Shown one piece after another: positions 32,368-62,436 of a stretch of DNA of 64,000 nucleotides. Origin of the DNA: a virus; the IMG/VR virus record IMGVR_UViG_3300021379_000425, positions 21,253-85,252 of that record. One strand, 5' to 3'. Within the stretch, counting starts at the first letter, position 1. Every line of letters begins with the position of its first letter. The translations under genes and the position numbers were made by a program. The notes beneath the pieces were generated by a model. It was not told the origin of the DNA, ran no database searches, and saw only the letters and a list, made by a program, of their open reading frames with translations.

Positions 32368-32721
32368 ATGTCTCCTTTCCAAGACGCATGGAATATTTTG
32401 AAATCAAATGTCTATAATGCCGCTAGGCGTTCCACTTTACCAGCATATCACCCTGCGATTATGGGTATGATGGAAAGAAGATACTTGACAGGTGAAGCAG
32501 GACCATTTGAAGGATTTGAGCCTAGCGATGTCCACCCTAACGAGCAATCACCATTTAGAGTAAACAACATAGCAAATATGAGGGCTGATGAACTAAGAGG
32601 TAGAATACAACGCCAAAGTGTACCTAAAGTGATGCCGTATACAGATTCTCCTAGCGATGAAAACATAGACAGGGAATCTCGTGAGCAACTTCTTAGAGAA
32701 AGTAGACCGCAATTTAGATGA
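32368..32721 (+). CDS. Tagged hypothetical protein (MSPFQDAWNILKS)
   Basis: First plus-strand gene; TTAATAAA box about 25 nt upstream. Confidence 0.65.
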   Translation: MSPFQDAWNILKSNVYNAARRSTLPAYHPAIMGMMERRYLTGEAGPFEGFEPSDVHPNEQSPFRVNNIANMRADELRGRIQRQSVPKVMPYTDSPSDENIDRESREQLLRESRPQFR

Positions 32722-32786
32722 TAATGGTCATTCCAGTGGTCAACCAGTAAGTTTAACTTCTACACCGCTATCGTCTGTAAGATAGC

Positions 32787-33620
32787 ATGGAAGTCACAGT
32801 GTACGAAGTCGGTCCTAGAGATGGTTTGCAGTACCTTGATGACATCGTGCCGACTAGAGAGAAAGTCAAACTAATCGAGATGCTGTACGACAGTGGGCTT
32901 ACCAAAATCGAGGAAGTCAGTTTCGCTCACCCCAAACTGCTACCGCAGATGGCTGACGCTGAGGCTGTTTTCACAGGGAGTGGGTCTGTGCTGGTGATGA
33001 ACCAGCGTGGGTTCGAGCGAGCCAATTCGTGCGGTGTCGTGCTAATCAATGTGGTTATCAGTCCTTGCGAAGTCTTCAATGTCAAGAATACCGGCAAAAC
33101 ACGGTCCGAGTTGATGACGATGTACAAAACAATGCTGGCGAATCACCCTAAGCAGTTCGTGAGGGTGTACATCAGCATGGCGTTTGGTAGTCCGTATAGT
33201 GGGCAGTTTAGTGCAAGAGAGATTCGTAACTGCGTGAGGGATGCAAGGATGCTTGGCGGTACAGTGGTCTTTGCTGATACCGTAGGGGCTGGTACGCCCG
33301 ATGAAGTAAAGATGATGGCTGACATAGCCAAAGATGAAGGTGTGCGCCCGGCTTTGCATCTGCATCATAAGGGCGAAGACGAGAAAGCGATTCGTTTGGT
33401 GCAGGCGGGGCTGATGGCTGGTATAACTGAGTTTGATAGCAGTATAGCCGGGCTTGGTGGGTGTCCGTTTGCTGAGGGTAGTGGTGCTAACCTGTCTACC
33501 TCGACACTGGTGCGTCATTTACATGCATGGGGCTTTGAGACAGGCGTTGACGAGAAAAAGTTAATTGCCGCTGAAAAATTCGTTAATTATTTTAGTCGTG
33601 ACTCCATCCCAGCCCCATGA
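32787..33620 (+). CDS. mvaB: Hydroxymethylglutaryl-CoA lyase (DRE-TIM metallolyase)
   Basis: EVGPRDGLQ, ADTVG, LHLH, FDSSIAGLGGCPFAEGSGANLST. Confidence 0.92.
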   Translation: MEVTVYEVGPRDGLQYLDDIVPTREKVKLIEMLYDSGLTKIEEVSFAHPKLLPQMADAEAVFTGSGSVLVMNQRGFERANSCGVVLINVVISPCEVFNVKNTGKTRSELMTMYKTMLANHPKQFVRVYISMAFGSPYSGQFSAREIRNCVRDARMLGGTVVFADTVGAGTPDEVKMMADIAKDEGVRPALHLHHKGEDEKAIRLVQAGLMAGITEFDSSIAGLGGCPFAEGSGANLSTSTLVRHLHAWGFETGVDEKKLIAAEKFVNYFSRDSIPAP

Positions 33621-33847
33621 GCGCATTTGACAAGGCGTGGAGTTTACTCAAGCAACAGCCAATGATAGGCGACCCGGAAGGACCTTTGGCACAAGCACTG
33701 GCTAGAGCAAGGCAACAACCAAAGCCAAAACCTTTGCAGATAACCAATCTACCGCCTAAAGAGCCTCAAATGGTGCAGACTCAACTGCCAGCCGAACTAA
33801 CTCAAGGCGCACATGAGACACCTTTCAAGATATTCGGTCAGCAGTGA
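33617..33847 (+). CDS. Tagged small protein (MSAFDKAWSLLK)
   Basis: Tag followed by a Pro/Gln-rich body. Confidence 0.6.
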   Translation: MSAFDKAWSLLKQQPMIGDPEGPLAQALARARQQPKPKPLQITNLPPKEPQMVQTQLPAELTQGAHETPFKIFGQQ

Positions 33848-33851
33848 TAGC

Positions 33852-34604
33852 ATGACACCGATGGAGAAGGCTTGGCAATTGCTCAAGGCGACCTATCGCA
33901 TTGAGGCACAGCGACCAATGTATGCACATTCAGGTAGAAGGGAGTATAGGCTCTTAGACCAAGACGACAATGTTTTATCAACACTATCAGGTGATTTGTC
34001 AAGAAATAACAGTCTTAGTGATATTCACGGACATACTCGTGGAAAATACCGTAGACAAGGAAATTATAAAAAATTGATAAATGCTCTATTACAACAAGGT
34101 ATAGGTATAACTAGTAGTGAAAGAAACGATAAATCTCACCCATTTCATGAAAAGTTCATGTCTAATTTACCTAAGAATGTAGATTATGCTGATACATTTA
34201 ATGATTTTCACCACCTTACACCAATACACTATTCAAAAAAGAAAACCGCAAGATTCCCAAATAGCGATTTGAATATTCGTGACTACGGCTCTATTCCTAT
34301 ACATCATCTAGGATATGAAAATCCTACTGAAAATAGTAGATTCCACGGCACAATGGATAATAGAAGATTAACTGAATTTGCTGGTCATTCAATGTTCCCC
34401 GGTAGAGTAGCAAATCCTTTAGATTTCGCTAGAGACTGGGCATGGGAAGATTATGATAAAACTCGAAATGAAAAAGAGAAATTAAATCGTTTACAAGTGG
34501 ATAACCAACCTGAGACTTTCCAAGCCGGACTCGCTAATTATGACAGGAATTTTCTTAAACCGCCTGAATTACAGCAGTTCCTAGATGATATTAACCAAAG
34601 ATAA
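33852..34604 (+). CDS. Tagged GNAT-like protein (MTPMEKAWQLLKA)
   Basis: Acetyl-CoA motif A-like KYRRQGNYKKLINALL; start refined to ATG 33852. Confidence 0.5.
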   Translation: MTPMEKAWQLLKATYRIEAQRPMYAHSGRREYRLLDQDDNVLSTLSGDLSRNNSLSDIHGHTRGKYRRQGNYKKLINALLQQGIGITSSERNDKSHPFHEKFMSNLPKNVDYADTFNDFHHLTPIHYSKKKTARFPNSDLNIRDYGSIPIHHLGYENPTENSRFHGTMDNRRLTEFAGHSMFPGRVANPLDFARDWAWEDYDKTRNEKEKLNRLQVDNQPETFQAGLANYDRNFLKPPELQQFLDDINQR

Positions 34605-34713
34605 TCATGATTAAGTCCTCTATTAGAGGCTTGATAATCTTCTCATACAACCATGCAAACGGCATTAAAATAATCGCTAAACAAACTTTTGCTACTCCTT
34701 TCAACAGTGACAT
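34591..34713 (-). CDS. Small hydrophobic protein (40 aa)
   Basis: Manual translation MSLLKGVAKVCLAIILMPFAWLYEKIIKPLIEDLIMIIFG. Confidence 0.35.
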   Translation of the reverse strand: MSLLKGVAKVCLAIILMPFAWLYEKIIKPLIEDLIMIIFG

Positions 34714-34725
34714 CCCAAATCCCCA

Positions 34726-36234
34726 TCAGTAGTAGAATTGGGGTGGAGTATATGTTGGTTTTGCTATATCATCAACATCTTCCTGCATTCCGGTGAGTAA
34801 TTTGACGACATGTTCCATGTCCGGGTGGATATTTCCTACCATAGTGCCGTCACTTGTCTCTTCAAATGTGTGATTGCGGTCTAGCACTGCAAGGTCACGG
34901 CGCATATCTTCACTGATTTCGTTAGGAAGTTGTAGTTCACCCTTGAGCATACGCCATGCTAAGTCCATTGGTTCACTTTTTAGTACTAATTTTTCATTTC
35001 CATATTCATCAGTTTCTATTACATAAGCCCCCGATGATAGCATCATCTGTACTTGTGGGTCATTGCGGTCAACTTTAGTTGGTTCTGCTTGGACATTCAG
35101 TGGATTGACAGTATCGTTTTTTGCCCTAATGTTAAGCAAGTTTTGTTGTAGCGGGTGCTGTGCTTGAAGATATGTAGACCTCGGTGCGCCAGTTTCGGGG
35201 TCAATATCCATTCTACCGGCAAAGTTTTGCATCATTCTATCAGCACCTTGCCTGTAAATGTTTCTTGGATTGAATATATTAGTTAAATTTGCAGAAGATG
35301 AAACATCATCTCTACTGATTCTACCGCCCTCAGCGACTCTTTCTACTGCTCTTTGGTTTATTTCTTGGGCAGATGGTCCTTTTGATTCCATAAATTTAGG
35401 TGCAGAAACGAATTCATACTCGGAATCTCTTATTGGATGCCATTCTTTTGTCTGTCGATGACCAGTATGATGTTCTGCGCCTACTGTTATTAAACCGATA
35501 CCGCTTCCTCCATCTTCTGCTCTTGATGTTTTATGTCCGATTACATAGTGTGGTCTATCAATGCCCTCTTTAGGTTCATCAGTGGAGAGTCCGGGTACTT
35601 TCAAAACAGGATATTCATTGTATGTTTCATTACCCAGCCTTGTTTCTATTTTAGTGTTAAGATACTCTTTCAGTTCGGGATTTTTCTCTAATAAAATATC
35701 TGCAACTGCAAGTGCTACATCTTCATGAGAATAACCCTCAAGACCTTTTGGCATTTCTTGATTCGGTTCTATTCTCTTATCAGCGTTTTTAGAATAATGA
35801 TTTTTATCTGCTAAACCGACAGTGTGTTTTTTCCCTCTTTTCATTTGTGCTTTAATATTGTCTATTTGACTGTCATTCCACATGGCATCCCATTTCCATG
35901 CTTTCATCAAATTCCAAAGGATGTCCATCGGCTCACCTGTGCGTATTTCGCTACCGGCTTTTGCCGCTTGAGCCATCTGTTGATTTTGATTCATCATGTT
36001 TTGCTGTTGCATTTGTTGGCGGTTTGCCTGTTGCTCACCTACATTTGAAGCGATTTGTCCAGCAGTTAGAGCCTGTCCAGCCTTCGTGTTGCCAGCCTGT
36101 ACTGCGACCTTACCTACTTTCTTGGCGGCCTGTTTAGCACCCTGTACTGCCGCCTGCCTTCCAGCCTGTGTAGCCACTGCACCAGCAACCGCCTTTGCAC
36201 CGGCGATAAGTGCAGGAGGTATGAACGCCGGCAT
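34726..36234 (-). CDS. Multi-module protein with two internal tags (GEPMDILWNLMKA, SEPMDLAWRMLKG)
   Basis: Ala/Gln-rich N-terminus; tags at 35899-35937 and 34939-34977. Confidence 0.7.
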   Translation of the reverse strand: MPAFIPPALIAGAKAVAGAVATQAGRQAAVQGAKQAAKKVGKVAVQAGNTKAGQALTAGQIASNVGEQQANRQQMQQQNMMNQNQQMAQAAKAGSEIRTGEPMDILWNLMKAWKWDAMWNDSQIDNIKAQMKRGKKHTVGLADKNHYSKNADKRIEPNQEMPKGLEGYSHEDVALAVADILLEKNPELKEYLNTKIETRLGNETYNEYPVLKVPGLSTDEPKEGIDRPHYVIGHKTSRAEDGGSGIGLITVGAEHHTGHRQTKEWHPIRDSEYEFVSAPKFMESKGPSAQEINQRAVERVAEGGRISRDDVSSSANLTNIFNPRNIYRQGADRMMQNFAGRMDIDPETGAPRSTYLQAQHPLQQNLLNIRAKNDTVNPLNVQAEPTKVDRNDPQVQMMLSSGAYVIETDEYGNEKLVLKSEPMDLAWRMLKGELQLPNEISEDMRRDLAVLDRNHTFEETSDGTMVGNIHPDMEHVVKLLTGMQEDVDDIAKPTYTPPQFYY

Positions 36235-36286
36235 GGAATTACCATAGAGCGATAATTCTTTAAATTATCCGTAATTAAAACATTTC

Positions 36287-38998
36287 ATGCGTAGGGGCGA
36301 AGACATCGAGAAAGCCCCTTCCAAACCTAAATCTTTCAAAGAATATTTAGAAACAATGCTGTCCGAAACTCCACCGTGGGCTTTGTACGAGGAAGGTGGA
36401 GAAACGGCACTTGATTATTCACCTTACGACCACCCTAAACTGAAAAATGTTGAAGATAAAAAGAAAGAAGATAAATTAAGAGAGTTGCTATTACATGATG
36501 AACCTAGATACCGACCTAGACTTCTTGACCCCGAAAATGCTGTGTTTGTACCTAAATTAGATGATAGATTAGATTCTGTTATAGATGACCCTTTGATAAA
36601 CTATGGTAAAAAATTCGCAAAGCCTTTTGAAAATGTAATAAGACAGGGTAAAAGATTAGTTGACCCTAAATTAATACGACCAAAATCGAGTGTACAAACT
36701 ACATTACCGCAACATTTTCCTAGACTAACAACCGAAAATCCTTACGATGAAGAGGGTAGAATAAAACCCGGTGCTATTGCGCCGATAACTGCTTTTAAAC
36801 AAATGGGTAGAGATGCTTTCAATAATCTTCTTTCTTACGGTTTGATACCCGGATTAACAGTTGATTCCTTAGATTGGGAAGATAGGTCTAATTTACGAGA
36901 TATGACTCCTGTTCCTGTAAAATCGGGGGCATCATTTGTAGCCCCAGTAGGTACTTTAGATGCCATAAGGGGTACAATGAATCAATCGGGAGGTCGAGGA
37001 AAACCGATTTATGTAGGCATTAGAGGATTTGCACAACCGGAAGATAAAGCATTCTTGAGAACAGACAGTAGAGAACCAATAGAGGCGGCGGCTTTGGGTC
37101 GTATTCCACCGGAAAGATTGGTTTTACCTTTCAATGTAGCACAATCGGGAAAGGAATTTGGAAGCCCACTTTCTTTTGAAGAATGGCGAAATGCTTCAAA
37201 AGGACCTACAACATTTGAAGATTATGTGGCACAAATGAAAGGTCCGAGGTATCTTCAACATTTACAAGATGCTGGATATACGGAAGAAATAGATGATTAC
37301 AGGCAACTTTGGAATAGTAGACAAGATATGCAAAGATTAGATTATGAAAAGTATTTACAAACAATGAAAAATTCTAGTATAAGAACAAATTTATTGAATC
37401 AAAGACTGGCTGAATTAGGAGAAGATTTTCCACCCTTAACGGCTGAAAATTACCCAATGGAAGGGGGGCAAAGAAATCCTTACCAAACATTATACTACGA
37501 ACATCTTTACGAAGATAAATTTCCAAAAACTGCCGCTGATACAAAAAATACAAGGGTAAAACAGGCTTTAGGTGCTGTGCCGAAAGAATGGAGTCAAAAC
37601 ACTAAATTTAATTTGATGAACCCTGCTTTAAGCGATGCTGAAAGGGAAGCAATAAGACAAGAATTTCAAGCGAATGCTGACCACGAAATACATATGAATA
37701 GTAGACATGATGGCACTGTTCACCCTGCTCAATTCAATAGAATTACAAGAGGTTTGATGAGCGCAATATATGGTCCACAAGCATCTAATATGATTGATTT
37801 CCGAGACAATGTAGGAGATTCTTATTCCGAAAGAGGTGAAAAAATAGGATTAGAAATGAATAACCCAGCGGCGGCATCGTTAGGATTACCTAATACATGG
37901 AACGCACCTCAATTATTCAATCCTAATTTCAATCCTAATCAATCAGTGATAAAAGCACCAAGAATCACTGCATACAGTCCTAGAGAAATAAGAGACATAG
38001 CACCCGACCTGCAAGGAATTAGGTATATACCGAAAGAATACTTAGAATCCGCTGGTAAGCCAATTAGAGTTCATAGTGGTGGGAAAAGAGGTGTAGGGCA
38101 ATCCTATGATTGGGAGCAGGATTTACAGCGATTAAAATACGATATACCGCAAAGTAGTTTTTATTCATGGATGATAAATAAACCAAAACCGCTTACAGGT
38201 TTGTTTAGTGAAGAATTTAGAATGATACCCGAATACAATATTGCAGGAAGAGAGTTAGAATTATCTCCGGTTGAAAGTGGAAATATTGTCGCTGGACAGT
38301 TTATGCACCCACCAGTAAAAGAAGCATTAAGAGAACCCGATTATACTGCACATCTTCACAGACCGATGGCTCTCACTGGAATATTGGAACAGCCTCAATT
38401 CATGAGAGAAGGAACTGAGGGGTCTAAAGGATTAGGTGAAGGATTCCACTATGGAGAACTAGAGCCGGATTCTGTCGTACAATTAGAACTACCACATAAT
38501 ATACAGCCTATGGAAATGGCTAGTGTTGCTAGGAAAAGAGAGTATGATAGACCTAGAAATCAAAGAGAGAAAGACGCAATGAATTGGTTAAGCCACATAC
38601 CAAGTATGGGTGTGCCTACATCTACTGAATGGTGGAAGCAACAGGGTGCAACGGAAATGACCGCACCTCAACTTGAACAGGCTGGATTATTCCAAGCCGG
38701 TGAACCAATGGACATCGCTATGCAGTTGCTAAAGCGGGAGATGAGTCCGGAAGCGAAACAACATAAACTCGAATATGACAAGAAGTATGAGTCCACGCCG
38801 GAGAGAGTCAAGTATCGTGAAGAGTTGAACCGTGAGCGCAGAAAGCGTGGTATCTACGGTAGCGGCGACCATATGGATGTCAGTCACACCGAGGGTGGTA
38901 AGTTAACTCTCGAAGGTGAACATGAGAATAGAGCGAGACATTTCAAAGAGCGTGGTACGCTTAGACCTAGCAAAATCGCTGTACGCAAAGACAATTGA
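36287..38998 (+). CDS. 903-aa multi-domain protein: possible ART/Tpt1-like domain, tag, C-terminal HNH-like domain
   Basis: LLSYGLIPG...ASFVAP...YVGIRG...EAAALGRIPPERL; AGEPMDIAMQLLKR (38696-38737); DHMDVSHTEGG...ENRARH. Confidence 0.6.
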   Translation: MRRGEDIEKAPSKPKSFKEYLETMLSETPPWALYEEGGETALDYSPYDHPKLKNVEDKKKEDKLRELLLHDEPRYRPRLLDPENAVFVPKLDDRLDSVIDDPLINYGKKFAKPFENVIRQGKRLVDPKLIRPKSSVQTTLPQHFPRLTTENPYDEEGRIKPGAIAPITAFKQMGRDAFNNLLSYGLIPGLTVDSLDWEDRSNLRDMTPVPVKSGASFVAPVGTLDAIRGTMNQSGGRGKPIYVGIRGFAQPEDKAFLRTDSREPIEAAALGRIPPERLVLPFNVAQSGKEFGSPLSFEEWRNASKGPTTFEDYVAQMKGPRYLQHLQDAGYTEEIDDYRQLWNSRQDMQRLDYEKYLQTMKNSSIRTNLLNQRLAELGEDFPPLTAENYPMEGGQRNPYQTLYYEHLYEDKFPKTAADTKNTRVKQALGAVPKEWSQNTKFNLMNPALSDAEREAIRQEFQANADHEIHMNSRHDGTVHPAQFNRITRGLMSAIYGPQASNMIDFRDNVGDSYSERGEKIGLEMNNPAAASLGLPNTWNAPQLFNPNFNPNQSVIKAPRITAYSPREIRDIAPDLQGIRYIPKEYLESAGKPIRVHSGGKRGVGQSYDWEQDLQRLKYDIPQSSFYSWMINKPKPLTGLFSEEFRMIPEYNIAGRELELSPVESGNIVAGQFMHPPVKEALREPDYTAHLHRPMALTGILEQPQFMREGTEGSKGLGEGFHYGELEPDSVVQLELPHNIQPMEMASVARKREYDRPRNQREKDAMNWLSHIPSMGVPTSTEWWKQQGATEMTAPQLEQAGLFQAGEPMDIAMQLLKREMSPEAKQHKLEYDKKYESTPERVKYREELNRERRKRGIYGSGDHMDVSHTEGGKLTLEGEHENRARHFKERGTLRPSKIAVRKDN

Positions 38999-39000
38999 TA

Positions 39001-39210
39001 CTGTTCACTATGTTCACTATGTTCACTTTGCTCATCAAAGTGTTCACTAAAAATGACCATTTCGATTGCCTAATGTTCAATATATCCCTTATTATAATAA
39101 TATAATATTAAGAGTAGTAGTACTATGAAAAAATGAACATTCTCATTCTGCTCATTTTGAATGAACAAAGTGGTGAACATTTTGAACAAAGCGAACATTT
39201 TGAACACAAT
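39001..39210. repeat. Origin-like element B: 9-bp-periodic TGTTCA iterons, AT-rich core, inverted TGAACA iterons
   Basis: TG(T/C)TCA at 39002, 39011, 39020, 39029, 39041 and 39074; core ATTATAATAATATAATATTAA; (T/C)GAACA at 39134, 39162, 39174, 39183, 39192 and 39201. Confidence 0.75.
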
Positions 39211-39239
39211 CTTTATGATGACCTCTCGGTTGACCATAA

Positions 39240-39815
39240 ATGAGGACAATGGATGAAATCAATCACTCGGAAGCAGAAATAAGACTACTGGGGCTGATAC
39301 TTACTCAGTCTGCATTGGTTGGATTAGCAATCGGAGTATTCGACTCGGACATATGGTTGAATAACGATGATGCGTTGGTAAACGGCTTTACATATGCAAT
39401 GGCCGCTTTCTTTATACAAGGAATAGCATATTATTTCTTTAAGATGTTCTTTGAACAGAACATGCAAGAAAGAGTCAAGATGCAGAATATTGAGAGACAA
39501 AGACAAAGCAGATTCAAGAATATGCAAAGCACATTTGATAATCGTAGAGCAGAAATGGAGTTAAGAATGCAAGAAGCACAACTAGAGGCTGAATTGCGCT
39601 GGATGGAGTCCAACCCCGGTAAAATGCCTCCTTCATGGGGTGTACAAGGTGGTTCACCTTCACTGATAAATCAGTATGAAAATAAATTAATTACAAATCC
39701 TCCTACACATCAAGCAGAAATAAAACAGCCAATTAATCTAGGAATAAAAGATGAAGAGGAAGAAGTACCTCTAAAGAAGGATGGAACACCGGATAAGAGA
39801 TACAAAACCGAGTGA
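39240..39815 (+). CDS. Membrane protein with 2 TM segments plus coiled coil
   Basis: LLGLILTQSALVGLAIGVF and GFTYAMAAFFIQGIAYYFF, followed by a charged helical region. Confidence 0.7.
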   Translation: MRTMDEINHSEAEIRLLGLILTQSALVGLAIGVFDSDIWLNNDDALVNGFTYAMAAFFIQGIAYYFFKMFFEQNMQERVKMQNIERQRQSRFKNMQSTFDNRRAEMELRMQEAQLEAELRWMESNPGKMPPSWGVQGGSPSLINQYENKLITNPPTHQAEIKQPINLGIKDEEEEVPLKKDGTPDKRYKTE

Positions 39816-39820
39816 TGTAA

Positions 39821-40081
39821 ATGGGTCGCATATTCAAAACCCCTTCCGATGACTCTACGGAGGCAACGCTTAGGGCTATGCATACCCAAAATACTCTTGA
39901 CACATATTACGAAAAAAGTTTAGGATGGATTAGAACCGTAATAATAGGGTTTATCGCAGTATTGATAACAAGTTTTTATGAATTACAAACAGGAAATTCC
40001 GTATGGGAGGGTACAGTAGAATGGTTTTACGGCAAGGTGGAAAATTTAGCGAATTTCTTATTCGGGTGGTTGTATGGTTGA
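39821..40081 (+). CDS. Small single-TM protein
   Basis: WIRTVIIGFIAVLITSFY. Confidence 0.65.
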   Translation: MGRIFKTPSDDSTEATLRAMHTQNTLDTYYEKSLGWIRTVIIGFIAVLITSFYELQTGNSVWEGTVEWFYGKVENLANFLFGWLYG

Positions 40082-40790
40082 ACCAGCAGGTACGGCACTT
40101 GTTGGTGCGATGGTTTGGGGAAAAGCGGTCTTCAATTCATACAGGCCACGCAAGGTCGGCATTTACGGCGCAGGACTAGTTGGTAAAACTACACTTGACC
40201 GCTTTATGACAACTCCGGGTGAAATGGAAGAGATTGATGAAGAAGATAGAACAACACACCTAAAATTACTGGGTAAATTTCTCTTACCTAAACCGACAAG
40301 AAAAAGAGTAGCATGGAAAGGAGAAAAGAGAGTAGTCTTTTCATCCGATATAGGTGGACAAGAGAGATTTTGGAATCTATGGATAGATGATATGGTATCA
40401 AGACAAGTAGAGGCTGTTGTCTATGTATTTGATGATAGAGCAGTAAAAGGCGGTGATGATGCATTACAACAGATTGCTGGGTTCAAATATCTAGTAGACG
40501 CAATAGTGTACAAGCAGTATCGTTATCGTAGTTTGAAAAGTAAAATTAAAGGAAAAAGATATTCTCCAAAACTGATTATGTTAGTTGCTAACAAAGCGGA
40601 TAGGTTCTTTGACGAGACTGCCGCAATGCTTTGGGGGCAAGACAGAATAGGAGAACACAAGATATTCGACCCGTTTAGAGATGATTTGATTAGGCTACAA
40701 AAGAACGGTATACCTACAAGAAAATCTTTCATGGCTACAAGAATAGGGTGGAATGTTGAAAATACAATGGTAAGTCTTTTGACAACATAG
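40074..40790 (+). CDS. Ras-superfamily (Arf/Rab-like) small GTPase
   Basis: G1 GAGLVGKTT, G3 DIGGQERF..LW, VVYVFD strand, G4 ANKAD; hydrophobic/amphipathic N-terminus. Confidence 0.88.
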   Translation: MVEPAGTALVGAMVWGKAVFNSYRPRKVGIYGAGLVGKTTLDRFMTTPGEMEEIDEEDRTTHLKLLGKFLLPKPTRKRVAWKGEKRVVFSSDIGGQERFWNLWIDDMVSRQVEAVVYVFDDRAVKGGDDALQQIAGFKYLVDAIVYKQYRYRSLKSKIKGKRYSPKLIMLVANKADRFFDETAAMLWGQDRIGEHKIFDPFRDDLIRLQKNGIPTRKSFMATRIGWNVENTMVSLLTT

Positions 40791-40799
40791 GTGAGATAT

Positions 40800-42476: not shown

Positions 42477-42480
42477 TAAT

Positions 42481-42723
42481 ATGGATGAAAGGAGATACAT
42501 GCCAAGTGGAGTGGCGGCTTCAACGCTAGATGTTTTGAACCCTACAAGAAGCGTTACTGTTGATATGATAATGGTACAGTTCTTGTCTGCCATACTTACA
42601 ATTCTTGTAATCATATTATTCAAAGGTCAAACTTTAGGTTCTTCTACTGCATCTTACTTGATGCTCGCTATGATAGCATCAATTATTATGCTCTCAACAG
42701 TATATGCTAGAATAACCAAATAG
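42481..42723 (+). CDS. Small 2-TM membrane protein (holin-like size)
   Basis: Two hydrophobic helices. Confidence 0.65.
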   Translation: MDERRYMPSGVAASTLDVLNPTRSVTVDMIMVQFLSAILTILVIILFKGQTLGSSTASYLMLAMIASIIMLSTVYARITK

Positions 42724-42963
42724 TCACCATTTGTTTAACGGGCAATTAGAGTTGAACAGATTTGTTTTAGCATTAATAAAACATCCACATTCAAGACAAC
42801 GGTTGTTTCTTCTACTTGGGCATGTTTGACAAATTCTGCGTCTTTCATCTTTGAGTATAGCGGGTGCAAATCGACCCTTAGCCGTGTCACTGATAGCCAT
42901 TTTCAAACTATCAATTGATTCTTTTGTGAGAGGCACTTTTGCTATTCTCTTTCCCTTCCACAT
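42724..42963 (-). CDS. Small Cys-rich protein (DUF6171-like)
   Basis: RRRICQTCP...RCLECGCFINAKT...CPLNKW. Confidence 0.65.
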   Translation of the reverse strand: MWKGKRIAKVPLTKESIDSLKMAISDTAKGRFAPAILKDERRRICQTCPSRRNNRCLECGCFINAKTNLFNSNCPLNKW

Positions 42964-43022
42964 GATTTGCCCAGCACCTATTTAACCATAATCGTTTTGA
43001 ATAACCATTGTTTAACCATGCT

Positions 43023-43700
43023 ATGGGCGGAGAGCGTGTTGTAAAACGCTCATGTGCATTTTGCACACATGAAGACCGTGACAAACTTGAGGAACAACTG
43101 CTTCAAGGTTACATTTCTCCAAAGCAACTGGACAAAGATATGGGTTGGAGAACAAACACCACTGACCGTCATTTTCGCAATCACATGGGCGAGTATCACA
43201 TGGCTTCAAACACAAGTTGTGCGCTTTGTACTACACCACTGAGAGCAGATTACGAGAGAATCTATTTTGAGGATGGAAGTAATATAGAAAGGATTGCCAG
43301 TGAATTAGAAATAAGTGAGGATAATGTATATCATCACATGAAGCACCACTTCCAACCGTTAGTGCAAAAGTCTGCGGCAGTGGAAGTAGCATTAGTCGCT
43401 GGGCAAGAAATAAACCTATTGAGGTCAAACGCTGAAAAATTAAACTACAAACTGAGCGAACTGCTTGACGAAGGCACTGTTCATGAAGATGGATTCGTAA
43501 GAGATGCTGTTGCCTTGCACAAGGAAGTTAGAGAAACTGTCAAAGACTTGCTACGCTTCCAAGACCAATGGGGTGCGAAGGCTGAGGGTCAACAAGTCAA
43601 TCAAACCTTCAACATTCTACAAGTTGAACTGGGTAAAGAAAGCCCCGAAACTTGGTCTAGGATAAAGAATCAATTAATGGAAAATATGGGGGTTGAATAA
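43023..43700 (+). CDS. Tandem Zn-HTH protein, terminase small subunit candidate
   Basis: Two CxxC...HxxxH repeats plus a coiled coil; late operon upstream of TerL. Confidence 0.5.
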   Translation: MGGERVVKRSCAFCTHEDRDKLEEQLLQGYISPKQLDKDMGWRTNTTDRHFRNHMGEYHMASNTSCALCTTPLRADYERIYFEDGSNIERIASELEISEDNVYHHMKHHFQPLVQKSAAVEVALVAGQEINLLRSNAEKLNYKLSELLDEGTVHEDGFVRDAVALHKEVRETVKDLLRFQDQWGAKAEGQQVNQTFNILQVELGKESPETWSRIKNQLMENMGVE

Positions 43701-45757
43701 TGCCAATGATGGGAAGAGGTTCGGACACTCGTATGTACTCGCCCCGTAGCGAGTCCGACAAGATGTATTCATCGGCTAATGAAGACGAGAGTAAGTATAA
43801 TCCTGCGTCACCCGAATACAATGAGGAAAAGCGTGAGGAAAAGAAACGCAAAGAAGAAGAGCGCAAGGAAAGCCGTTCCAAAATAAAACATATCAAAATT
43901 CGTGCATCACAAGGTCTTGGTGAAGAAACCAAAGAAGAAGGGCTTGATGATGGCAACAAGCGTGATGATGAGCGTGAAATGGCTCTTCAAGGTGGTCCTG
44001 CCGGAAGTAGAGGTACACTACTTGACCTCGCTACTGGGGCGAAGAGTGGAACTGGAAGTGCAATGAGTCCGGGTCTACCTATTGCTATGAGCGAACCAAT
44101 GACTGACGCTTGGAGTGACTTGTTAAAGTCTAAGAAAATATCTCCGGGTATTGGCGCAGATGAGTCCGATGCTTTAGAAGAGAGAATGAGAAGGGCTGGC
44201 GAAAAAGTTGGAAGAGATTTCTCTCATTTAGGACAAAGGAGAGTAGAAACAGGTAGAAGTAAGCGTGGAGAAGTAAGTAGAAATTTTAAAACATCAACTG
44301 GTGGCACTGGTAAACTATACACAGGTCCAAGAAATAATCGTGCGTATAGAAGAGAACTGGCTGAAAAGCAAAAAGAGTTAGAGGAAGAAAGAAGAAAGAC
44401 AGAAGATTTCATAAATCGAACCAAAATACACCCCGGAGAGGAAAATTTTAGACCGGATAAAATGATTAACACTGATTCTATATCTAATTTACACGAATCG
44501 GGTTTAATTGAACCGCAAGATGTAGCAAGAGATACTGATAGAGGTGGCTATGCAAGAATAGAAATGGATGGCGACAAACCTGTTTCTACTGGTGTTGCAC
44601 CATCGGAATTTAACGACCTTAGAGGTGCGATGTCTATTGAAGAGGCTTTTGATAGAGCCGAAAGAGGTATACCAGTTATTGAAGTAAATCCCGAACACCC
44701 TGATATGGCAGATGTAGGGGATATAGAATCCGATATGACTGGTACATACATACCCGAATCGCCTAAGATGCAATTTGGTTTTCGTGAAAATCCTTACTTG
44801 AGAAATACTAAAACTGGTAATTTTGCTAGAGTAGATGCAACGCCTTCATTCCGTGGTATTCCGTTCAATGAAAATACATATTTCACAGCGAGTGAGCCAA
44901 TGGATAATGCATGGAGTAGTTTGTTAAAGAGAGAAACACCAAAGACAATTGCATCTCGAAGAAGAAGAGAAGCAAGACAACAATTCCGACCAAGCACAGG
45001 ACAATTCAAGACACCTCCGGGCGGTATGACACCGGAGGGTTCCACAATGCGAAGATTCAAAGCCCGTATGCGTGGTATCAAGGGTGGAAAGAAAACAGGT
45101 TTGATGAAACCTCACCTTTCTGTCGAGATGTCACACAGGGGTATTCAAACGAAGCAACCGTTGAGTAAAGACCCACAAAAGTACACACAATACAAAGGAC
45201 AATCCGAGGCAAGAAAGATTCTCGGTGGTGCAAGAACTGTATATTCTCCACATGCAAGATACGGTGCTAGGTCGAACATAGCAGGACCAACTGGTGCTGG
45301 AAGATTAAGCGGTGTCTTACCTTCTCAAAGAGGACAAATGACAAGACCTTCTCTAAGACAAATGGGTATAAGAAGACCAAGAATGCCTAGAGTAATGAGG
45401 CCACCAATGCCTCCACAACCAATGATGCCACAAATGCAATCATCTGTACCAAGTATGCCAGCACCTATCATGGCGAGCGAAGAAAGAGCGCACAGTGAAC
45501 TTCTAAAGGCAAACTTCGCAAGAAGAATGGAGTTGCTTGAATTGATGAGAAGGCTCATTCGTGCAAAAGAAAAGGAAGCAAAAATCAAGAAGAACATCAA
45601 AGGAACTGATGAAGCACTAGTACCCGGACACCCTGTTGGAGTAAGGGCAACTGATGATGAAGACCCCGATGGACCTACTGAAAACACAGAAACAGATGCA
45701 AAGTTGTTCGGTCTTGACCCTGCTCATATTGTATCACGCAGGGGGCATATGGGATGA
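43700..45757 (+). CDS. Low-complexity putative virion protein with repeated tags
   Basis: MSEPMTDAWSDLLKS (44087-44131), ASEPMDNAWSSLLKR (44888-44932) and HSELLKA; basic Arg-rich segments. Confidence 0.7.
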   Translation: MPMMGRGSDTRMYSPRSESDKMYSSANEDESKYNPASPEYNEEKREEKKRKEEERKESRSKIKHIKIRASQGLGEETKEEGLDDGNKRDDEREMALQGGPAGSRGTLLDLATGAKSGTGSAMSPGLPIAMSEPMTDAWSDLLKSKKISPGIGADESDALEERMRRAGEKVGRDFSHLGQRRVETGRSKRGEVSRNFKTSTGGTGKLYTGPRNNRAYRRELAEKQKELEEERRKTEDFINRTKIHPGEENFRPDKMINTDSISNLHESGLIEPQDVARDTDRGGYARIEMDGDKPVSTGVAPSEFNDLRGAMSIEEAFDRAERGIPVIEVNPEHPDMADVGDIESDMTGTYIPESPKMQFGFRENPYLRNTKTGNFARVDATPSFRGIPFNENTYFTASEPMDNAWSSLLKRETPKTIASRRRREARQQFRPSTGQFKTPPGGMTPEGSTMRRFKARMRGIKGGKKTGLMKPHLSVEMSHRGIQTKQPLSKDPQKYTQYKGQSEARKILGGARTVYSPHARYGARSNIAGPTGAGRLSGVLPSQRGQMTRPSLRQMGIRRPRMPRVMRPPMPPQPMMPQMQSSVPSMPAPIMASEERAHSELLKANFARRMELLELMRRLIRAKEKEAKIKKNIKGTDEALVPGHPVGVRATDDEDPDGPTENTETDAKLFGLDPAHIVSRRGHMG

Positions 45758-47781
45758 AGGTAAGAGTCATCAAGGCGGAAGGTGTACTCGCTTACCTACA
45801 AGATGGTCCTGTTTATCTTAGAAATCCACCAGTTAATGCACTAAGAGCAGAAGGACAGCCGGATGTACCACCATTTGCTCACGATGGACAAGGTAATGTC
45901 TTAGACGGTGAATACAAAGTAGGACCTCATGGAGAGCAAGTGTTTGATGCCGGGTTCGCTCATCACAGACACGGTATAGATTCGGTGGCTCACCATCTTG
46001 GAGAATTTTTGAAAAATAGAGGTTCAAGGGTCAATCCAGTTGATGTAATTAATCATGCTATTGAAGAGTTCAATGATAATCACACAGATGGCGATACACA
46101 TGCATTAGATAATTTTGATTCTCCACAGTGGAGAAAAACGAATGCGAATGTTTTGCCGGGCGGTGATTCTGCATATAATAAAGAAACTAACGCATTTACC
46201 CACACAAGACCTACAAGAACAAACGCTGGTAAAAAGATTACTAACTATACAAATAAAAATTATCAAACTAATCAATTCGGTAGATTCGTAGAATCATATG
46301 CTATTCCTTTCCATGCTGAATTATTGAGAGCGTTAGTAGATATGGGATTCTCAAGAAACGAACTAATGCAAAGTAATCTAAACTTCTTGAAATATCCTTA
46401 TCTTCCAGTAGAAAAAACTGTTCACTCCCTTGACCCCGATAACGAGATTGGTAAAGTTATAAGATTACACAAACCTATTGGTGACTCCACAGTAACAGAT
46501 GAGGCTAGAAGACAATCTCCTACTGATTACTTTGGTGATACTACACCAGTATTCACATACAATACTCTTCATCATTTACCCGACATATTCTTCCATCCCG
46601 ATTTGAAAGAGTCACTAGGTAAAAAGGGTAAAGTACACTCTTGGGACCACAAAGGAGGACTGTACGCACAGGCTGAATCAATTATTAATCAAGCATTAGA
46701 AAGAGGTGTAGAACACATACCTAATGTTGAAGTTACAATCAATGAAGGCACAATGGGCAATCCACAAATGATTACTAGACCACTTAGAGAAATACTAACT
46801 ACACCGGATTTGAAGCGAAGTCTTATCCAAGACATGTCGCATGTACCTGCTATGATGTATCTTTTTGGTAGGAGTAATCAAGGTAATTTCAAGAAACTAG
46901 AAAACTACATGACGCAGAAATTTGGTGGTGAAGAAGACGGTTTATCCTACGAACACCATCTAGGTTATTTCAAAGCCGGTGAAAAGGGTGGAAAGGGTAT
47001 GCACTCTTCCGCAAGAAGAATCATGGCATTGGCTAGAAAGTCCGGTGTCGGAGAGGCTGAGGACAGGAGTAAATTTGGTGAACACACAATTACGCCCGAT
47101 GAACTTCGTGCGGCTGATATGTATTCTAATGAAAATCTAATGGGTCAAGTTGATAGATTCCGAAATGTATTGGAAGCACTAGCAGACCACCAATCTAATG
47201 CAAGAGGATTAGAACCTAGAATGGTATTAGGAGATATTCCTACATCGCCTCTAATTGCTCCGAATGTTGGTAATTTTCCGGCAGTTAACCCCGAAACAGG
47301 GCAATTAGAAACAGGACTTGAACCACATATGGAAGAGTTCCTACATCACCCGCATGAATATGCGCCTACATCAGCATACGACCCTAGTATGTCTGCTCCA
47401 CAACAGAATGTCCTAGCAGGTCAGTTGCCTCCAATTGTCGGTTCTCCAACCTCCGGCGAGTCACTTCCTCAACCTCCTGTTAGGACACCTCAACCTCCTA
47501 TGGGTGCTATGCCAACATCGTACCCACACACAGCAAGACAACAGTTCCAGCAACTAAGACCACAGTTTGCTGGTCTTGACCCAAGACAGTTTAGACAAGT
47601 ATTGGATATTGCTGGTTCAAGAAGAGCAGGTGCGCCTATAACTGATGACCCACTCTCTCCTGTTGAGATGAGAGCGCAACAAGCATTGGCTGACCCAGCG
47701 CAAACATTACTTCCATTCTTTAACAAGAGCAATCCAATCGGCGGTGCTTTTGACCTACTGAAAAGGAGGGGCATATTATGA
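45754..47781 (+). CDS. Hypothetical putative virion protein
   Basis: Starts MKVRVIKA and ends NPIGGAFDLLKRRGIL. Confidence 0.7.
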   Translation: MKVRVIKAEGVLAYLQDGPVYLRNPPVNALRAEGQPDVPPFAHDGQGNVLDGEYKVGPHGEQVFDAGFAHHRHGIDSVAHHLGEFLKNRGSRVNPVDVINHAIEEFNDNHTDGDTHALDNFDSPQWRKTNANVLPGGDSAYNKETNAFTHTRPTRTNAGKKITNYTNKNYQTNQFGRFVESYAIPFHAELLRALVDMGFSRNELMQSNLNFLKYPYLPVEKTVHSLDPDNEIGKVIRLHKPIGDSTVTDEARRQSPTDYFGDTTPVFTYNTLHHLPDIFFHPDLKESLGKKGKVHSWDHKGGLYAQAESIINQALERGVEHIPNVEVTINEGTMGNPQMITRPLREILTTPDLKRSLIQDMSHVPAMMYLFGRSNQGNFKKLENYMTQKFGGEEDGLSYEHHLGYFKAGEKGGKGMHSSARRIMALARKSGVGEAEDRSKFGEHTITPDELRAADMYSNENLMGQVDRFRNVLEALADHQSNARGLEPRMVLGDIPTSPLIAPNVGNFPAVNPETGQLETGLEPHMEEFLHHPHEYAPTSAYDPSMSAPQQNVLAGQLPPIVGSPTSGESLPQPPVRTPQPPMGAMPTSYPHTARQQFQQLRPQFAGLDPRQFRQVLDIAGSRRAGAPITDDPLSPVEMRAQQALADPAQTLLPFFNKSNPIGGAFDLLKRRGIL

Positions 47782-48623
47782 GTAAAATTTTAGTCAAGTC
47801 TAATGGCTTTGGTGGAGTATCATACATGATTGACCCCCGACAAAGGGGCGGTCCAACATTTATGGACTTAGGAAGAAGAGTCCTCGATACTAATTTAGGC
47901 GGTGGACAAAGACTGGGTGCTTTGGCTGGTCTTGCAGGTAAGATAGGGGCTGGTGCAGTAGCCGCTAATCAAGCCGCTTATGGATTACAAGCAGGTAACT
48001 TATCTGCACCGTTTGGTGCAATGGACCAATATGCGGCTCTTGACCCTACAAGGGGAATGAAACTAACTGATGCTGAAAACGAGCGTAGAATGCGAGAACA
48101 AGCGGTAGAACAAGTCGCACAGGAAAGAATGCAAGAACAAGCAAGAAGAGATGCTGAGATAGCGGCACAACCACAGGCTCAACCAGCGGAACAAATAGAC
48201 CTACCAGTATACGCTCGTGGAACAGGGCAAATGCGATTACCAACAAGAGGTAATGTCATGACACCTGTACCTACAACTGCTACACAAGCACCAGTGCCGG
48301 ACCCTTCTATGCCTCCTGCGGAAGCAGTTACTCCACAGGTGCAAAATTTAGGTACGACTATGGGCAATACTGTACAACAACCGTTACCAATTAATTCTAC
48401 ACAGAATACTGCTGGTGTAATACAAGAAAGTGTACATCCCGAACATCACGATAATATTATAGAAGAGGCTGACAGAATAAAGCGTTTAGGCCAAGTTACT
48501 GGTGAAGCACAAAAATCGTATGTAGATATGGTATACGATGAGATGGGTGATATTTTCTACAAGCAATCCGCTGAGGATGTAGCGAATGCGATTACATTTA
48601 CATTCCTAAAACATAGAAGGTGA
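47778..48623 (+). CDS. Hypothetical protein with Gly/Ala hydrophobic segment
   Basis: MSKILVKS start; LGALAGLAGKIGAGAVAA. Confidence 0.65.
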   Translation: MSKILVKSNGFGGVSYMIDPRQRGGPTFMDLGRRVLDTNLGGGQRLGALAGLAGKIGAGAVAANQAAYGLQAGNLSAPFGAMDQYAALDPTRGMKLTDAENERRMREQAVEQVAQERMQEQARRDAEIAAQPQAQPAEQIDLPVYARGTGQMRLPTRGNVMTPVPTTATQAPVPDPSMPPAEAVTPQVQNLGTTMGNTVQQPLPINSTQNTAGVIQESVHPEHHDNIIEEADRIKRLGQVTGEAQKSYVDMVYDEMGDIFYKQSAEDVANAITFTFLKHRR

Positions 48624-48627
48624 ACTT

Positions 48628-50115
48628 ATGACAGACATGAATGAGTTCATCATGGACATGGATAGAAAAATGTCCTCGAAGTCATTCAAGTATTTTTTTA
48701 ATGATATTTTAAAATTCGATTATTCTTATCATCACCAGTGCTGGGATGAGGGGCTGGCTGAGAACAGATACTATTGTGTTAAGGCGAGTCGTGACCACGG
48801 CAAGTCTGTATTCTTCATGTCTTATGCTCTTTGGATAGCGGCTTTTCAGCCGGGTACTCACATCATGATTTTCTCTCACTCTCTTGAGCAGACGCTTGAA
48901 CACATGAGATTCATCCGTAACAACATAGAGGGTACACCTTGTTTGAGGTATTTGATACCGGAAGGTAGACCGTGGAGAAAGACATATTTCGAGTTCAGCA
49001 ACGGAAGCCGTATTATGGCAAAGTCCGTTGGTGGTGGTACTCGTGGATTCCACCCGAATGTTGTTCTGTGTGACGATATTTTGTGGGGTACTACTGGTAC
49101 TGAACTACAAAGAGCCGCAGACTGGTTCTACGGTGTATTGCTTCCTGTACTGCACCACACAGGTAGACTGATGATGGTCGGTACACCTTTCAGTTACAAT
49201 GACCTGTACGCTGAATTAGAGCAGACTGAGACATTCACAGTAGAAACTTACCCCGCAATTAACGCAAACGGTGAAGCATTATGGCCGGAGAGATGGAATC
49301 TTGAGGCACTAGATGAAAGGCGTTTGACTATGCCGGCTATACAATTCTCTCGTGAGTATCTATGCGAGCCTATTCACGATGTAGCAAGTATGTTCCCTAA
49401 TGAACTACTAGAGAAAGCGAGAAACACTGACTTGGTTTTACTTGACAAAGCCGAGGTAGAATACAATGCTGATGGTGAAGTAGCCGGTGTATTCGGTCAA
49501 CACTTCATCGGATGGGATACTGCGATAGCCTCCGACAAAAACGCAGACTTTACGGCCATGACTGTGATGAGGATACCTCCGGGTGAAGGTATTAAACAGA
49601 TAGTGGGAATCGTACACGAGAAGGGGATGGGAAGCCTTGCTCAAAAGAAACAGATACTAATGCTGAACAATCGCTTCCAGCCGGATTTGATTGAACTTGA
49701 AGGTAACAACTTCCAGCGTATGTTTGAAGCAGAATTGGTAGAGATGAGAAACGACATACCAATTAAGACCTTCATGACAACTCGTACTCGTAAAGAGAGC
49801 CTGTTTATGTCACTGCTGATGGCATTTGAACAAGGACAAATACAAACTCCATATGGTGACAAGCGAAGCAAAGAGTTCACACACAAGTTAGAAACTGAAC
49901 TGAACAGATTCGGTATGCAGAAAAACGGCAGACTAGAATCCGTAGGTACGCACGATGACTTGGCGATGAGTCTTGCTTTGGCTAATTGGGCTACTAAAGA
50001 ATTCAAGGGTAGCGTAGTTCTGCTAGATGATGTGCTACCCGGCTTTGATGACTGGATGCGTGGAAAACCACACAGGAGCGAAGCAAGCCTAGCAGATGGT
50101 TGGATGATACCATGA
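48628..50115 (+). CDS. terL: Terminase large subunit
   Basis: ASRDHGKS Walker A, VLCDD Walker B, VGTP, IGWDTA and HDDLAMSLALA nuclease motifs. Confidence 0.93.
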   Translation: MTDMNEFIMDMDRKMSSKSFKYFFNDILKFDYSYHHQCWDEGLAENRYYCVKASRDHGKSVFFMSYALWIAAFQPGTHIMIFSHSLEQTLEHMRFIRNNIEGTPCLRYLIPEGRPWRKTYFEFSNGSRIMAKSVGGGTRGFHPNVVLCDDILWGTTGTELQRAADWFYGVLLPVLHHTGRLMMVGTPFSYNDLYAELEQTETFTVETYPAINANGEALWPERWNLEALDERRLTMPAIQFSREYLCEPIHDVASMFPNELLEKARNTDLVLLDKAEVEYNADGEVAGVFGQHFIGWDTAIASDKNADFTAMTVMRIPPGEGIKQIVGIVHEKGMGSLAQKKQILMLNNRFQPDLIELEGNNFQRMFEAELVEMRNDIPIKTFMTTRTRKESLFMSLLMAFEQGQIQTPYGDKRSKEFTHKLETELNRFGMQKNGRLESVGTHDDLAMSLALANWATKEFKGSVVLLDDVLPGFDDWMRGKPHRSEASLADGWMIP

Positions 50116-50143
50116 TTTATCCGTTTGAAGAGTGGGGATTTTA

Positions 50144-50335
50144 ATGATAAAAAGTTGTGAATGCGGTCATTGCATAGGAATGTCGAGCGCATGGGATTCT
50201 TTAGAGAAGAAACTATGCCCGGAAGGAAAAGCGGCGGCAAAGCGTAAATTCAAGGTATATCCATCAGCATATGCTAATGGATGGGCGGTACAATATTGCC
50301 GAGGTAAGTTTAGGAAGAAGGGGAAGAAGAAATGA
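50144..50335 (+). CDS. Small basic protein (DUF5872-like) with tag
   Basis: MSSAWDSLEKK followed by AKRKFKVYPSAYANGW. Confidence 0.6.
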   Translation: MIKSCECGHCIGMSSAWDSLEKKLCPEGKAAAKRKFKVYPSAYANGWAVQYCRGKFRKKGKKK

Positions 50336-50553
50336 TAGATTTTGAATATGTCATGGCTTTTCTAAAAGCAAAGCGTGACGCTCCTAATTATCGTGAGGCT
50401 TCCGAGGAAGAGATGAAACTCAAGAAAAACTGTGGTACATGTAAGGCATGGGATAGTTCTGCAACGGATGACCCTAAGACTGGTTACTGCAAGTGGTACG
50501 ACTTCAATTGTATGGCTGACCATATTTGTGATGCGTGGGTGAGAAAGGAATGA
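50332..50553 (+). CDS. HiPIP-like 4-Cys protein
   Basis: APNY...CGTCKAW...GYC...CDAW. Confidence 0.55.
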   Translation: MIDFEYVMAFLKAKRDAPNYREASEEEMKLKKNCGTCKAWDSSATDDPKTGYCKWYDFNCMADHICDAWVRKE

Positions 50554-50951: not shown

Positions 50952-50976
50952 ATCATAGGTCATTTGAGTGGTCATT

Positions 50977-62431: not shown

Positions 62432-62436
62432 ATAAT

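Follow-up and report, generated by a model that had tools for sequence, protein, structure and literature searches.

The virus contig IMGVR_UViG_3300021379_000425 (85,252 bp) encodes a 13-residue peptide tag that recurs on otherwise unrelated proteins, and we analysed it in bases 21,253-85,252 of that contig (the window, 64,000 nucleotides; coordinates are window positions unless stated otherwise). The tag takes an internal form, [G/S]-E-P-M-[D/E]-x-A-[W/F/M]-x-x-L-L-K, and an N-terminal form, M-x-[P/A]-F-[D/E]-x-A-W-x-L-L-K. Ten clear copies occur in the 85-kb genome, nine of them inside the window and the tenth upstream of it, at genome position 6742. In related viruses the tag marks module boundaries exactly, and the modules that it separates (cassettes) are hypervariable and are moved among three polyprotein frames and stand-alone genes. 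We propose that the tag may be an address-and-cut label, in which a docking helix is joined to the P3-P1 residues of a site for the virus's own S78 prohead protease; on the sequence evidence set out below, we hold this to be an even call.

Open reading frames (ORFs) were defined from stop to stop, with gene starts guessed. In an unbiased all-against-all comparison of 11-mers over the 117 ORFs, the tag formed the largest cluster spanning several proteins, with 7 sites in 5 proteins. The largest cluster in 25 shuffled proteomes had 5 sites once, 4 sites in five proteomes and at most 3 sites in the remaining 19, which bears out the enrichment over shuffled proteomes that a first-pass annotation of the window had expected. 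The nine strong copies listed in that annotation are all present. A first profile was seeded from this genome's ten copies, two 14-residue copies standing one column out of register. With a profile built from the copies of other genomes only, the ten copies scored 22.8-8.6 bits, the next real match 5.7 bits and the best reversed-sequence match, our control maximum, 5.2 bits. The two lowest-scoring copies are the first tag of a 502-amino-acid (aa) polyprotein and the tag of an early-region 216-aa protein, the latter being the weakest and least certain of the ten (8.6 bits). The tagged genes, weaker tag-like copies and landmarks of the late module are collected in Table 1.

Table 1. Tagged genes, tag-like copies, candidate cut sites (arrow) and late-module landmarks in the window; tag scores in bits.
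Feature	Position	Strand	Description	Score
216-aa protein	13452-14102	-	early region; N-terminal tag-like MSAFDEAFDYLRQ at 14102-14064	8.6
117-aa protein	32368-32721	+	N-terminal tag MSPFQDAWNILKS at 32368-32406	17.1
76-aa protein	33617-33847	+	N-terminal tag MSAFDKAWSLLKQ at 33617-33655	22.6
250-aa protein	33852-34604	+	N-terminal tag MTPMEKAWQLLKA at 33852-33890	22.8
502-aa polyprotein	34726-36234	-	Ala/Gln-rich head, tag, 307-aa cassette, tag, tail
502-aa polyprotein, tag 1	35937-35899	-	GEPMDILWNLMKA	8.9
502-aa polyprotein, tag 2	34977-34939	-	SEPMDLAWRMLKG	21.2
903-aa protein	36287-38998	+	805-aa front part, tag, small basic tail
903-aa protein, tag	38699-38737	+	GEPMDIAMQLLKR	19.9
685-aa polyprotein	43700-45757	+	two genes upstream of the large terminase
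685-aa polyprotein, tags	44090-44131 and 44891-44932	+	variable 253-aa cassette between them
685-aa polyprotein, c0 tail	45491-45508	+	semi-conserved SELLK(A/G)
675-aa protein, C-terminal end	47728-47781	+	…GGAFDLLKRRGIL; not significant alone	0.6
Large terminase (TerL)	48628-50115	+	late-module landmark
Two small genes between TerL and portal	50132-50553	+	degenerate tags GMSSAWDSLEKK (50171) and MIDFEYVMAFLKA (50332)
431-aa protein	50968-52263		LAGLIDADG-type endonuclease domain; between terminase and portal; phrog_5046, E 5.5e-9
Portal protein	52260-53996	+	Pfam/PHROG scans
129-aa protein, weak tag-like copy	54451-54489	+	MESMDNTLNILKA; between portal and 1898-aa protein	6.1 and 5.7
1898-aa head-module protein	55313-61009
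S78 prohead protease	61055-62431	+	protease domain at residues ~15-170, followed in fusion by a long C-terminal extension, helical and acidic
Candidate protease self-cutting site	61550-61564	+	ILK↓ED; end of the S78 domain
Major capsid protein (MCP)	62428-63537	+	HK97 fold; phrog_24667, E 3e-60; Pfam SU10_MCP
Candidate MCP maturation site	62524-62544	+	SELLK↓AD

The first-pass annotation had also listed weaker copies. Taken alone, these do not hold up in this genome (3.0 bits at 50171, no match at 50332, and the 0.6 bits at the end of the 675-aa protein), but in related genomes clear tags stand on the homologues of both small genes, 50132 and 50332 (cluster c18). Among homologues of the 675-aa protein, the C-terminus is either a degenerate tag resembling MDDVMQIVK or a pair of hydrophobic residues plus K with 4-6 residues after it. 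The 129-aa protein has one homologue at the 9-bit listing threshold and itself carries ILK↓AE. A DUF5872 domain is split over two genes in this region, profile positions 4-44 lying on 50132-50335 (sub-threshold) and 55-114 on 50535-50951 (43 bits), and between the two parts lies a 73-aa gene with a degenerate tag.

Relatives were collected from marine IMG/VR contigs with TerL (233), the GTPase gene at 40074-40790 (156) and the MCP (at least 597), and 80 loci were kept for each query. The 903-aa protein as query returned one relative only, on a contig nearly identical to this genome. For the motif survey we combined the 80 TerL-anchored and 80 GTPase-anchored loci with the one from the 903-aa query (161 loci) and this genome, together 2.79 Mb and 46,032 stop-to-stop ORFs, and set the threshold at 10 bits. 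The survey returned 509 tag matches, against 1 in reversed ORFs. These correspond to 356 different 15-mers; raw match counts include duplicates because some contigs are shared among the TerL-, GTPase- and pattern-anchored loci. All 80 GTPase-anchored loci have at least one tag, and 25 TerL-anchored loci have none, all but one of which (L059) hold little sequence upstream of the terminase. The 80 MCP-anchored loci gave only 14 matches of at least 8 bits. Placement of the tag within the MCP, protease, 1898-aa or tail genes was rejected, since the matches of at least 9 bits all lie in small flanking ORFs. Three long genomes were compared: this one, a relative of 101.7 kb and another of 107.1 kb that CheckV rates as complete. 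The head-gene strand carries 31 of their 33 tags, which ties the tag to late and head genes. The tags of these genomes occupy five places: an island before the GTPase operon, the gene before TerL, in the gap between terminase and portal, after the MCP and after a 2205-aa protein.

A strict DNA pattern for E-P-M-(D/E)-x-A-W-x-x-L-L-K found 1 stretch in 596 Gb of prokaryote genomes, which is about the chance number by our own estimate from the information content of the pattern. The same pattern found 78 stretches in IMG/VR, and 77 of these occur with other genes of this virus family. A pattern for the N-terminal form found 53 stretches there; 45 of the 52 newly fetched loci have genes in common with this genome, and six of the seven others are short fragments of contigs that the family lists already include. 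Since the tag is nearly absent from prokaryotes and is found with the genes of this family, we conclude that it is a private feature of this virus lineage and not a host motif. Mimicry of a host motif, in the strict form, was rejected on the same ground.

The cargo behind the tag turns over extensively. Unique segments between tags of at least 30 aa (n=552) fell into 226 clusters, 157 of them singletons, and 44 of the 69 multi-member clusters were found in at least two neighbour contexts. The annotation's picture of a constant tag in front of highly variable cargo in related genomes is thus upheld, as is its claim that one tag serves many unrelated, swappable modules, some of them chained as polyproteins. 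Three polyprotein frames recur, each with variable cassettes in its middle. The first runs from a conserved acidic head (c1) to a very basic tail (c0), likewise conserved, is encoded two genes upstream of the terminase and is represented here by the 685-aa polyprotein; the second joins various heads to a small basic tail (c2, identical with phrog_6437, present in 46 loci), which here ends the 903-aa protein; and the third has an Ala-rich head and a 70-residue tail (c3), corresponding to the conserved 69-aa tail of the 502-aa polyprotein. The TerL-adjacent c1...c0 polyprotein showed 16 architectures among 110 ORFs. Among the best 120 of 364 independent database proteins with a c0 tail, median length was 423, 578 and 685 aa with 1, 2 and 3 tags, respectively. 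Tags number one to four per ORF, and some relatives have arrays of up to four consecutive small genes whose sole common feature is the tag. Several cassettes occur both as stand-alone proteins, with an M-x-P-F-D tag, and inside a polyprotein, with a G/S-E-P-M-D tag. Untagged versions of a first module begin at the K boundary or one residue off it, as in MRQTELGEF compared with LLKR↓QTELGEF.

The 509 matches divide into 369 internal tags, 116 N-terminal tags and 24 tags lying no more than 8 residues from the C-terminus. At the conserved positions all synonymous codons are used, with moderate skew only, which argues that selection acts on the peptide and not on the DNA; a DNA-level element was rejected for this reason. 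We compared the two forms in 246 unique internal contexts and 129 unique tags no more than 40 residues from the upstream in-frame stop (early tags). Position 0 is G (50%) or S (43%) in internal tags, whereas in early tags it is the ATG start codon in 90 cases and has the start one codon upstream in 24, so that a start codon lies within one codon of the tag in 114 of the 129 early copies. Position 1 is E in 85% of internal tags and S, N or T in early ones; position 2 is P in 93% of internal tags and P (58%) or A (36%) in early ones; and position 3 is M in 94% of internal tags and F in 77% of early ones. A given cassette family has the F-form in its stand-alone genes and the M-form inside polyproteins, which indicates that the F/M difference follows context and not descent. 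One idea is that Phe in N-terminal tags may keep a second start codon from arising three codons downstream of the true start; that translation might also begin internally, at the Met conserved in internal tags, was likewise considered, as an idea only. Internal tags are preceded by a hydrophobic residue at position -3 in 61% of cases. Directly after the tag K, 82% of the copies have E, R, S or A at P1' and 46% have E or D at P2'. Sequence conservation stops directly after this K, in keeping with the suggestion that the tag usually precedes a new domain; the names proposed for those domains fared worse, as described below.

The match of the LK end of the tag to the SELLK↓A of the MCP N-terminus, which the annotation had pointed out, stands, and a second match was found in the ILK↓ED of the protease. 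Both are places at which HK97-type systems are as a rule cut. The MCP N-terminus, YSGSELLK↓AD(A/S)PM, is kept in all 42 variants listed from 80 loci. At the end of the protease domain, AQF(R/S/T/K)ILK↓ED, the residues ILKED are invariant in 13 of 13 aligned homologues and those after them are variable; the AlphaFold2 (AF2) model of the protease, with a mean predicted local distance difference test (pLDDT) score of 52.0 and residues 115-179 below 50, is too poor to place this site in an exposed linker. The protease N-terminus (61085-61102) has a conserved G-(I/L)-x-(L/I)-(L/I/V)-K↓S-(G/S)-x-D, a further L-L-K-type site (loci L163-L237), whose (L/I)LK↓S falls in the first beta strand of the same poor model. 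The HK97 gp5 protein is cut after Lys. In the haloviruses HVTV-1, HCTV-1 and HCTV-5, the (M/V)SK↓AD of the MCP aligns with SELLK↓AD after an N-terminal extension of ~107 residues, and the halovirus protease has VVSK↓A(D/K) at the position aligned with ILK↓ED.

In the mechanism that we propose, the amphipathic helix P-M/F-D-x-A-W-x-x-L-L would dock its carrier protein to a component of the assembling prohead, for example the scaffold-like part of the protease protein or the inner capsid surface. The hydrophobic-L-K end of the tag would provide P3-P1 for the virus's own S78 prohead protease, and the same enzyme would trim the MCP behind SELLK and release itself by a cut behind ILK. N-terminal tags would be clipped off in the manner of T4 capsid-targeting sequences, and polyproteins would be cut after each tag into separate modules that remain inside the head and pass into the cell together with the DNA. 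Docking, cleavage, packaging and delivery of the tagged proteins are steps that we infer.

Several observations weigh against this mechanism, whose cleavage and packaging steps are pure inference. The MCP and protease sites have L-L-K alone in common with the tag and lack its EPMDxAW part, and the tag profile gives them no score. The 24 tags at the extreme C-terminus cannot be leaders. Two of the ten tagged genes in this genome lie on the strand opposite to the head genes, one of them in the early region. These three points are the hardest to reconcile with the mechanism. In the late half of HVTV-1 the tag was not found, the best match scoring 2.5 bits. The halovirus protease N-terminus reads PVFK↓S and not SK, which leaves any covariation at P2 weak, and the site comparison covers two lineages only. 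The pattern [ILMV][LM]K[EASR][DE] speaks for a common cut site, with 7 occurrences in the genome against a shuffle mean of 1.6, but is suggestive only because it was defined after the sites had been seen; at least one of 200 shuffles also gave 7 matches, the maximum reached. The seven sites lie in tagged proteins (3), in the weak-tag 129-aa gene, in the protease and in the MCP (2). Finally, the AF2 models of the protease and of the 33852 protein are both of low confidence (means 52.0 and 55.7), with the tag helix below 50.

The tag could instead be a docking peptide, that is a short linear motif, for a hub outside the capsid, such as the viral GTPase/membrane-protein operon or a host chaperone or degradation machine; it would gather many viral proteins at a single site of the infected cell, and its L-L-K likeness to capsid and protease sites would then be coincidental. 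Such a role would suit a tag that is long and helical far beyond the need of a protease, that occurs at N-terminal, internal and C-terminal positions, and whose EPMDxAW part is missing from the MCP and protease sites; tagged genes also stand on both sides of the GTPase operon, and every GTPase-anchored locus is tagged. We nevertheless regard it as unlikely, given that tags lie between TerL and portal and just after the MCP as well, that the strict motif is absent from prokaryote genomes and thus no host motif is mimicked in that form, and that a hub of this kind leaves unexplained both the stop of conservation at K and the untagged cassettes that start there.

Two other roles can be read from the position of the tags at module joints. 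The tag might be a processing signal only, for cytoplasmic maturation of polyproteins or pro-proteins whose products are not packaged, as would agree with the L-L-K end common to the tag and the likely protease sites. A cut site alone, however, needs no 13 conserved residues, and a 13-residue N-terminal propeptide on a 76-aa protein would have no evident use without targeting. HK97-type prohead proteases act inside the prohead, and the S78 prohead protease is the sole protease among the proteins scanned: no other peptidase family was found among the scanned window proteins and 20 cassettes, although Pfam covered ~45 of ~117 ORFs and another protease could thus be missed. We find a processing role of this kind distinctly unlikely. 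It is very improbable, in our view, that the tag is a passive linker or helix cap, retained as a recombination joint for module swaps. Cassettes are indeed exchanged exactly at tags, but synonymous sites are not conserved, so that there is little DNA homology for recombination; the tag is kept on the N-termini of single-domain proteins, where no joint is needed (the 114 of 129 early copies with an adjacent start codon); and the change of tag subtype with context for one cassette points to selection on the peptide.

If the tag does dock and is cut as an address-and-cut label would be, loading could be generally programmable: any protein with the 13-residue tag would be packaged, cut after Lys and delivered with the DNA, and the cassettes would be early take-over or counter-defence proteins. 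We put this forward tentatively, as somewhat short of an even prospect. If it is true, the tag turns metagenomes into a list of candidate early effectors that can be read from sequence, the hundreds of unclassifiable, fast-exchanged cassettes form a so far unused store of proteins for take-over in the first minute and for counter-defence against Poseidoniales, and the principle of T4 capsid targeting extends to an archaeal virus with an HK97-type protease. Foreign proteins, too, could be loaded into HK97-type capsids by means of the tag.

Known systems resemble this one in part. The cargo-loading peptides of encapsulins are short terminal peptides that send unrelated cargo inside an HK97-fold shell. 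Encapsulins differ in that they lack a portal, a terminase, DNA and a maturation protease and retain their cargo peptide uncut; the present genome encodes terminase, portal and protease, and the likeness is an analogy only. A further comparison concerns the capsid-targeting sequences of T4 (IPI-III, Alt; gp21), described in the available sections of PMC5694885 as N-terminal propeptides of 10-20 residues that direct incorporation into the prohead and are removed by the prohead protease. Common to T4 and the present virus is a short conserved N-terminal peptide on unrelated proteins of a tailed virus; the end of the peptide fits the motif of the virus's own prohead protease in T4 and may do so here. 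The protease here is of the HK97/S78 type with a presumed P1 Lys, whereas T4 gp21 cuts after Glu, at L/I-x-E; the tag here is also internal and C-terminal, punctuating cassette polyproteins; and the virus here is probably archaeal, its system being known from sequence alone. Since protease family and cut residue differ, the tag is not a member of the T4 system. In the giant phages SPN3US and phiKZ, many ejection and inner-head proteins have propeptides that the prohead protease cuts at one motif, A/S-x-E, as far as the sections available of PMC5694885, PMC7411985 and PMC10052503 describe them; diverged paralogues keep conserved N-termini, and in SPN3US the protease also trims itself at the C-terminus (PMC5694885, in part), as the protease here is a candidate to do. 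The propeptides described there are mostly longer than 100 residues, with no one common 13-mer, and the cargo genes are stable core genes, in contrast to the hypervariable cassettes found here.

The polyvalent proteins of phages and conjugative elements described by Iyer et al. 2017 in PMC5512222 (sections available) are also multi-module proteins of variable architecture that are predicted to enter the host with the DNA, with GNAT among their modules. According to the same sections they are defined by enzymatic domains of known type, with zincin-like metallopeptidases as their presumed processing enzymes, whereas 17 of 20 cassettes here have no known family, the proteins scanned showed no peptidase of that kind and a constant tag stands at every joint. 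In the Dar system of phage P1 (DarA/Hdf/DarB), anti-defence cargo is carried in the capsid, and the N-termini of DarA and of the MCP are both cut by the prohead protease; the accessible part of PMC12810830, on which this rests, describes hierarchical incorporation through DarA and Hdf on the inner capsid surface and no common short tag. The searchable magrovirus and halovirus literature, supplementary tables being outside the search, held no mention of the tag and no use of "polyprotein", and in PMC11706807 both "polyprotein" and "cargo" had 0 occurrences. New features here appear to be the probably archaeal HK97/S78 lineage, a candidate cut site of Lys type, a tag whose two forms depend on context, and the extent to which cassettes turn over.

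The identity of the cargo proved harder to read, and for the most part the first-pass view of it as effectors with named folds found no support. For the tagged proteins encoded in this genome, scans with Pfam and PHROG returned nothing except phrog_6437 on the tail of the 903-aa protein. This tail had been called HNH-like; phrog_6437 is of unknown function, and the domain also occurs, without a tag, in Syn5 gp50, S-CBS2 gp045 and Flavobacterium phages. The kinase-like and HiPIP-like labels found zero support in the Pfam scans. We also scanned 20 cassette representatives, the longest members of larger clusters from 49 candidates; Pfam gave no family in 17 of them, and the other three matched Phage_zn_bind_8, DUF6321 and DUF3293 (below cut-off). 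The GNAT-like label survives as a lead for the 250-aa protein at 33852, of which residues 13-90 may be GNAT-like on the evidence of structure models. That protein has five homologues only in 5.8e9 proteins, and its ESM look-alikes (0.91-0.93) have fewer than 170 common features. In its AF2 model (mean pLDDT 55.7) the core at residues 13-90 reaches 70-86, and the best Foldseek matches are GNAT folds, with an expectation value (E) of ~1e-3 and a template modelling (TM) score of 0.25-0.45. No usable match to the middle cassette of the 502-aa protein was found in the ESM Atlas.

The protease at 61055 is assigned by PF04586 (39.0 bits, cut-off 21) and PF14550 (33.3 bits, cut-off 24), and the 3' end of its gene lies 4 nucleotides inside the adjoining MCP gene. 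Against 50,697 phage records the MCP matched only 9, namely 8 haloarchaeal siphoviruses of the HVTV-1/HCTV-1/HCTV-5 group and one Methanofastidiosa virus, with identities of 34-36% (HVTV-1, HVTV-2, HCTV-1, HCTV-5, HCTV-16) and 29% (Methanofastidiosa virus). A sequence search of the PDB gave a marginal match only for the MCP (cyanophage Mic1, E 0.045) and chance matches only for the protease. The window also has an SNF2 helicase gene (20786-23350). The accessible text of PMC5434244 reports that magrovirus MCPs resemble only those of haloarchaeal siphoviruses and that group A has an SNF2 helicase; because both features recur here, we treat the genome as magrovirus-like, probably archaeal and probably infecting Poseidoniales, and as part of an abundant marine virus family. 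Poseidoniales (marine group II) rank with the most abundant microbes of the surface ocean (PMC5434244, in part). In the literature examined, no isolated tailed virus of Poseidoniales was described, such viruses being known from metagenomes.

Two further genes of the late module were set against HVTV-1. The Pfam match of the 50968-52263 protein to LAGLIDADG_3 is below cut-off, and HVTV-1 has HNH endonucleases at the places corresponding to this gene. Residues 1478-1570 of the 1898-aa protein gave a sub-threshold match to an ATP-dependent DNA ligase adenylation domain (22.9 bits, cut-off 26.2), and the position of this protein is that of the large HVTV-1 proteins gp113-gp115, one of which is annotated "zeta toxin".

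Putative polymerase and clamp genes are present, and Pfam returned zero matches for three neighbours of the polymerase gene. A second recurrent motif, MIDTSKYEG, lies at or near the N-terminus of four small early-strand proteins (7801-8656 and 11558-12034, minus strand), two of which also have AP(L/D)LLAEVKRL further on; these probably form a paralogue family. Two 98-aa paralogues (19639-19935 and 23347-23643, minus strand) flank the SNF2 helicase gene and have several long conserved blocks in common. In the variable island, an HMGL-like gene without a tag (32787-33620; pyruvate carboxyltransferase/HMG-CoA-lyase type, Pfam E 3e-22) stands between two tagged genes and overlaps at its 3' end with the beginning of the gene that follows. 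The short minus-strand ORFs 30498-30683 and 39070-39249, one at each edge of this island, have peptide blocks in common, FTTMFTKNE in one corresponding to FTTLFIQNE in the other, together with FIVLLL.

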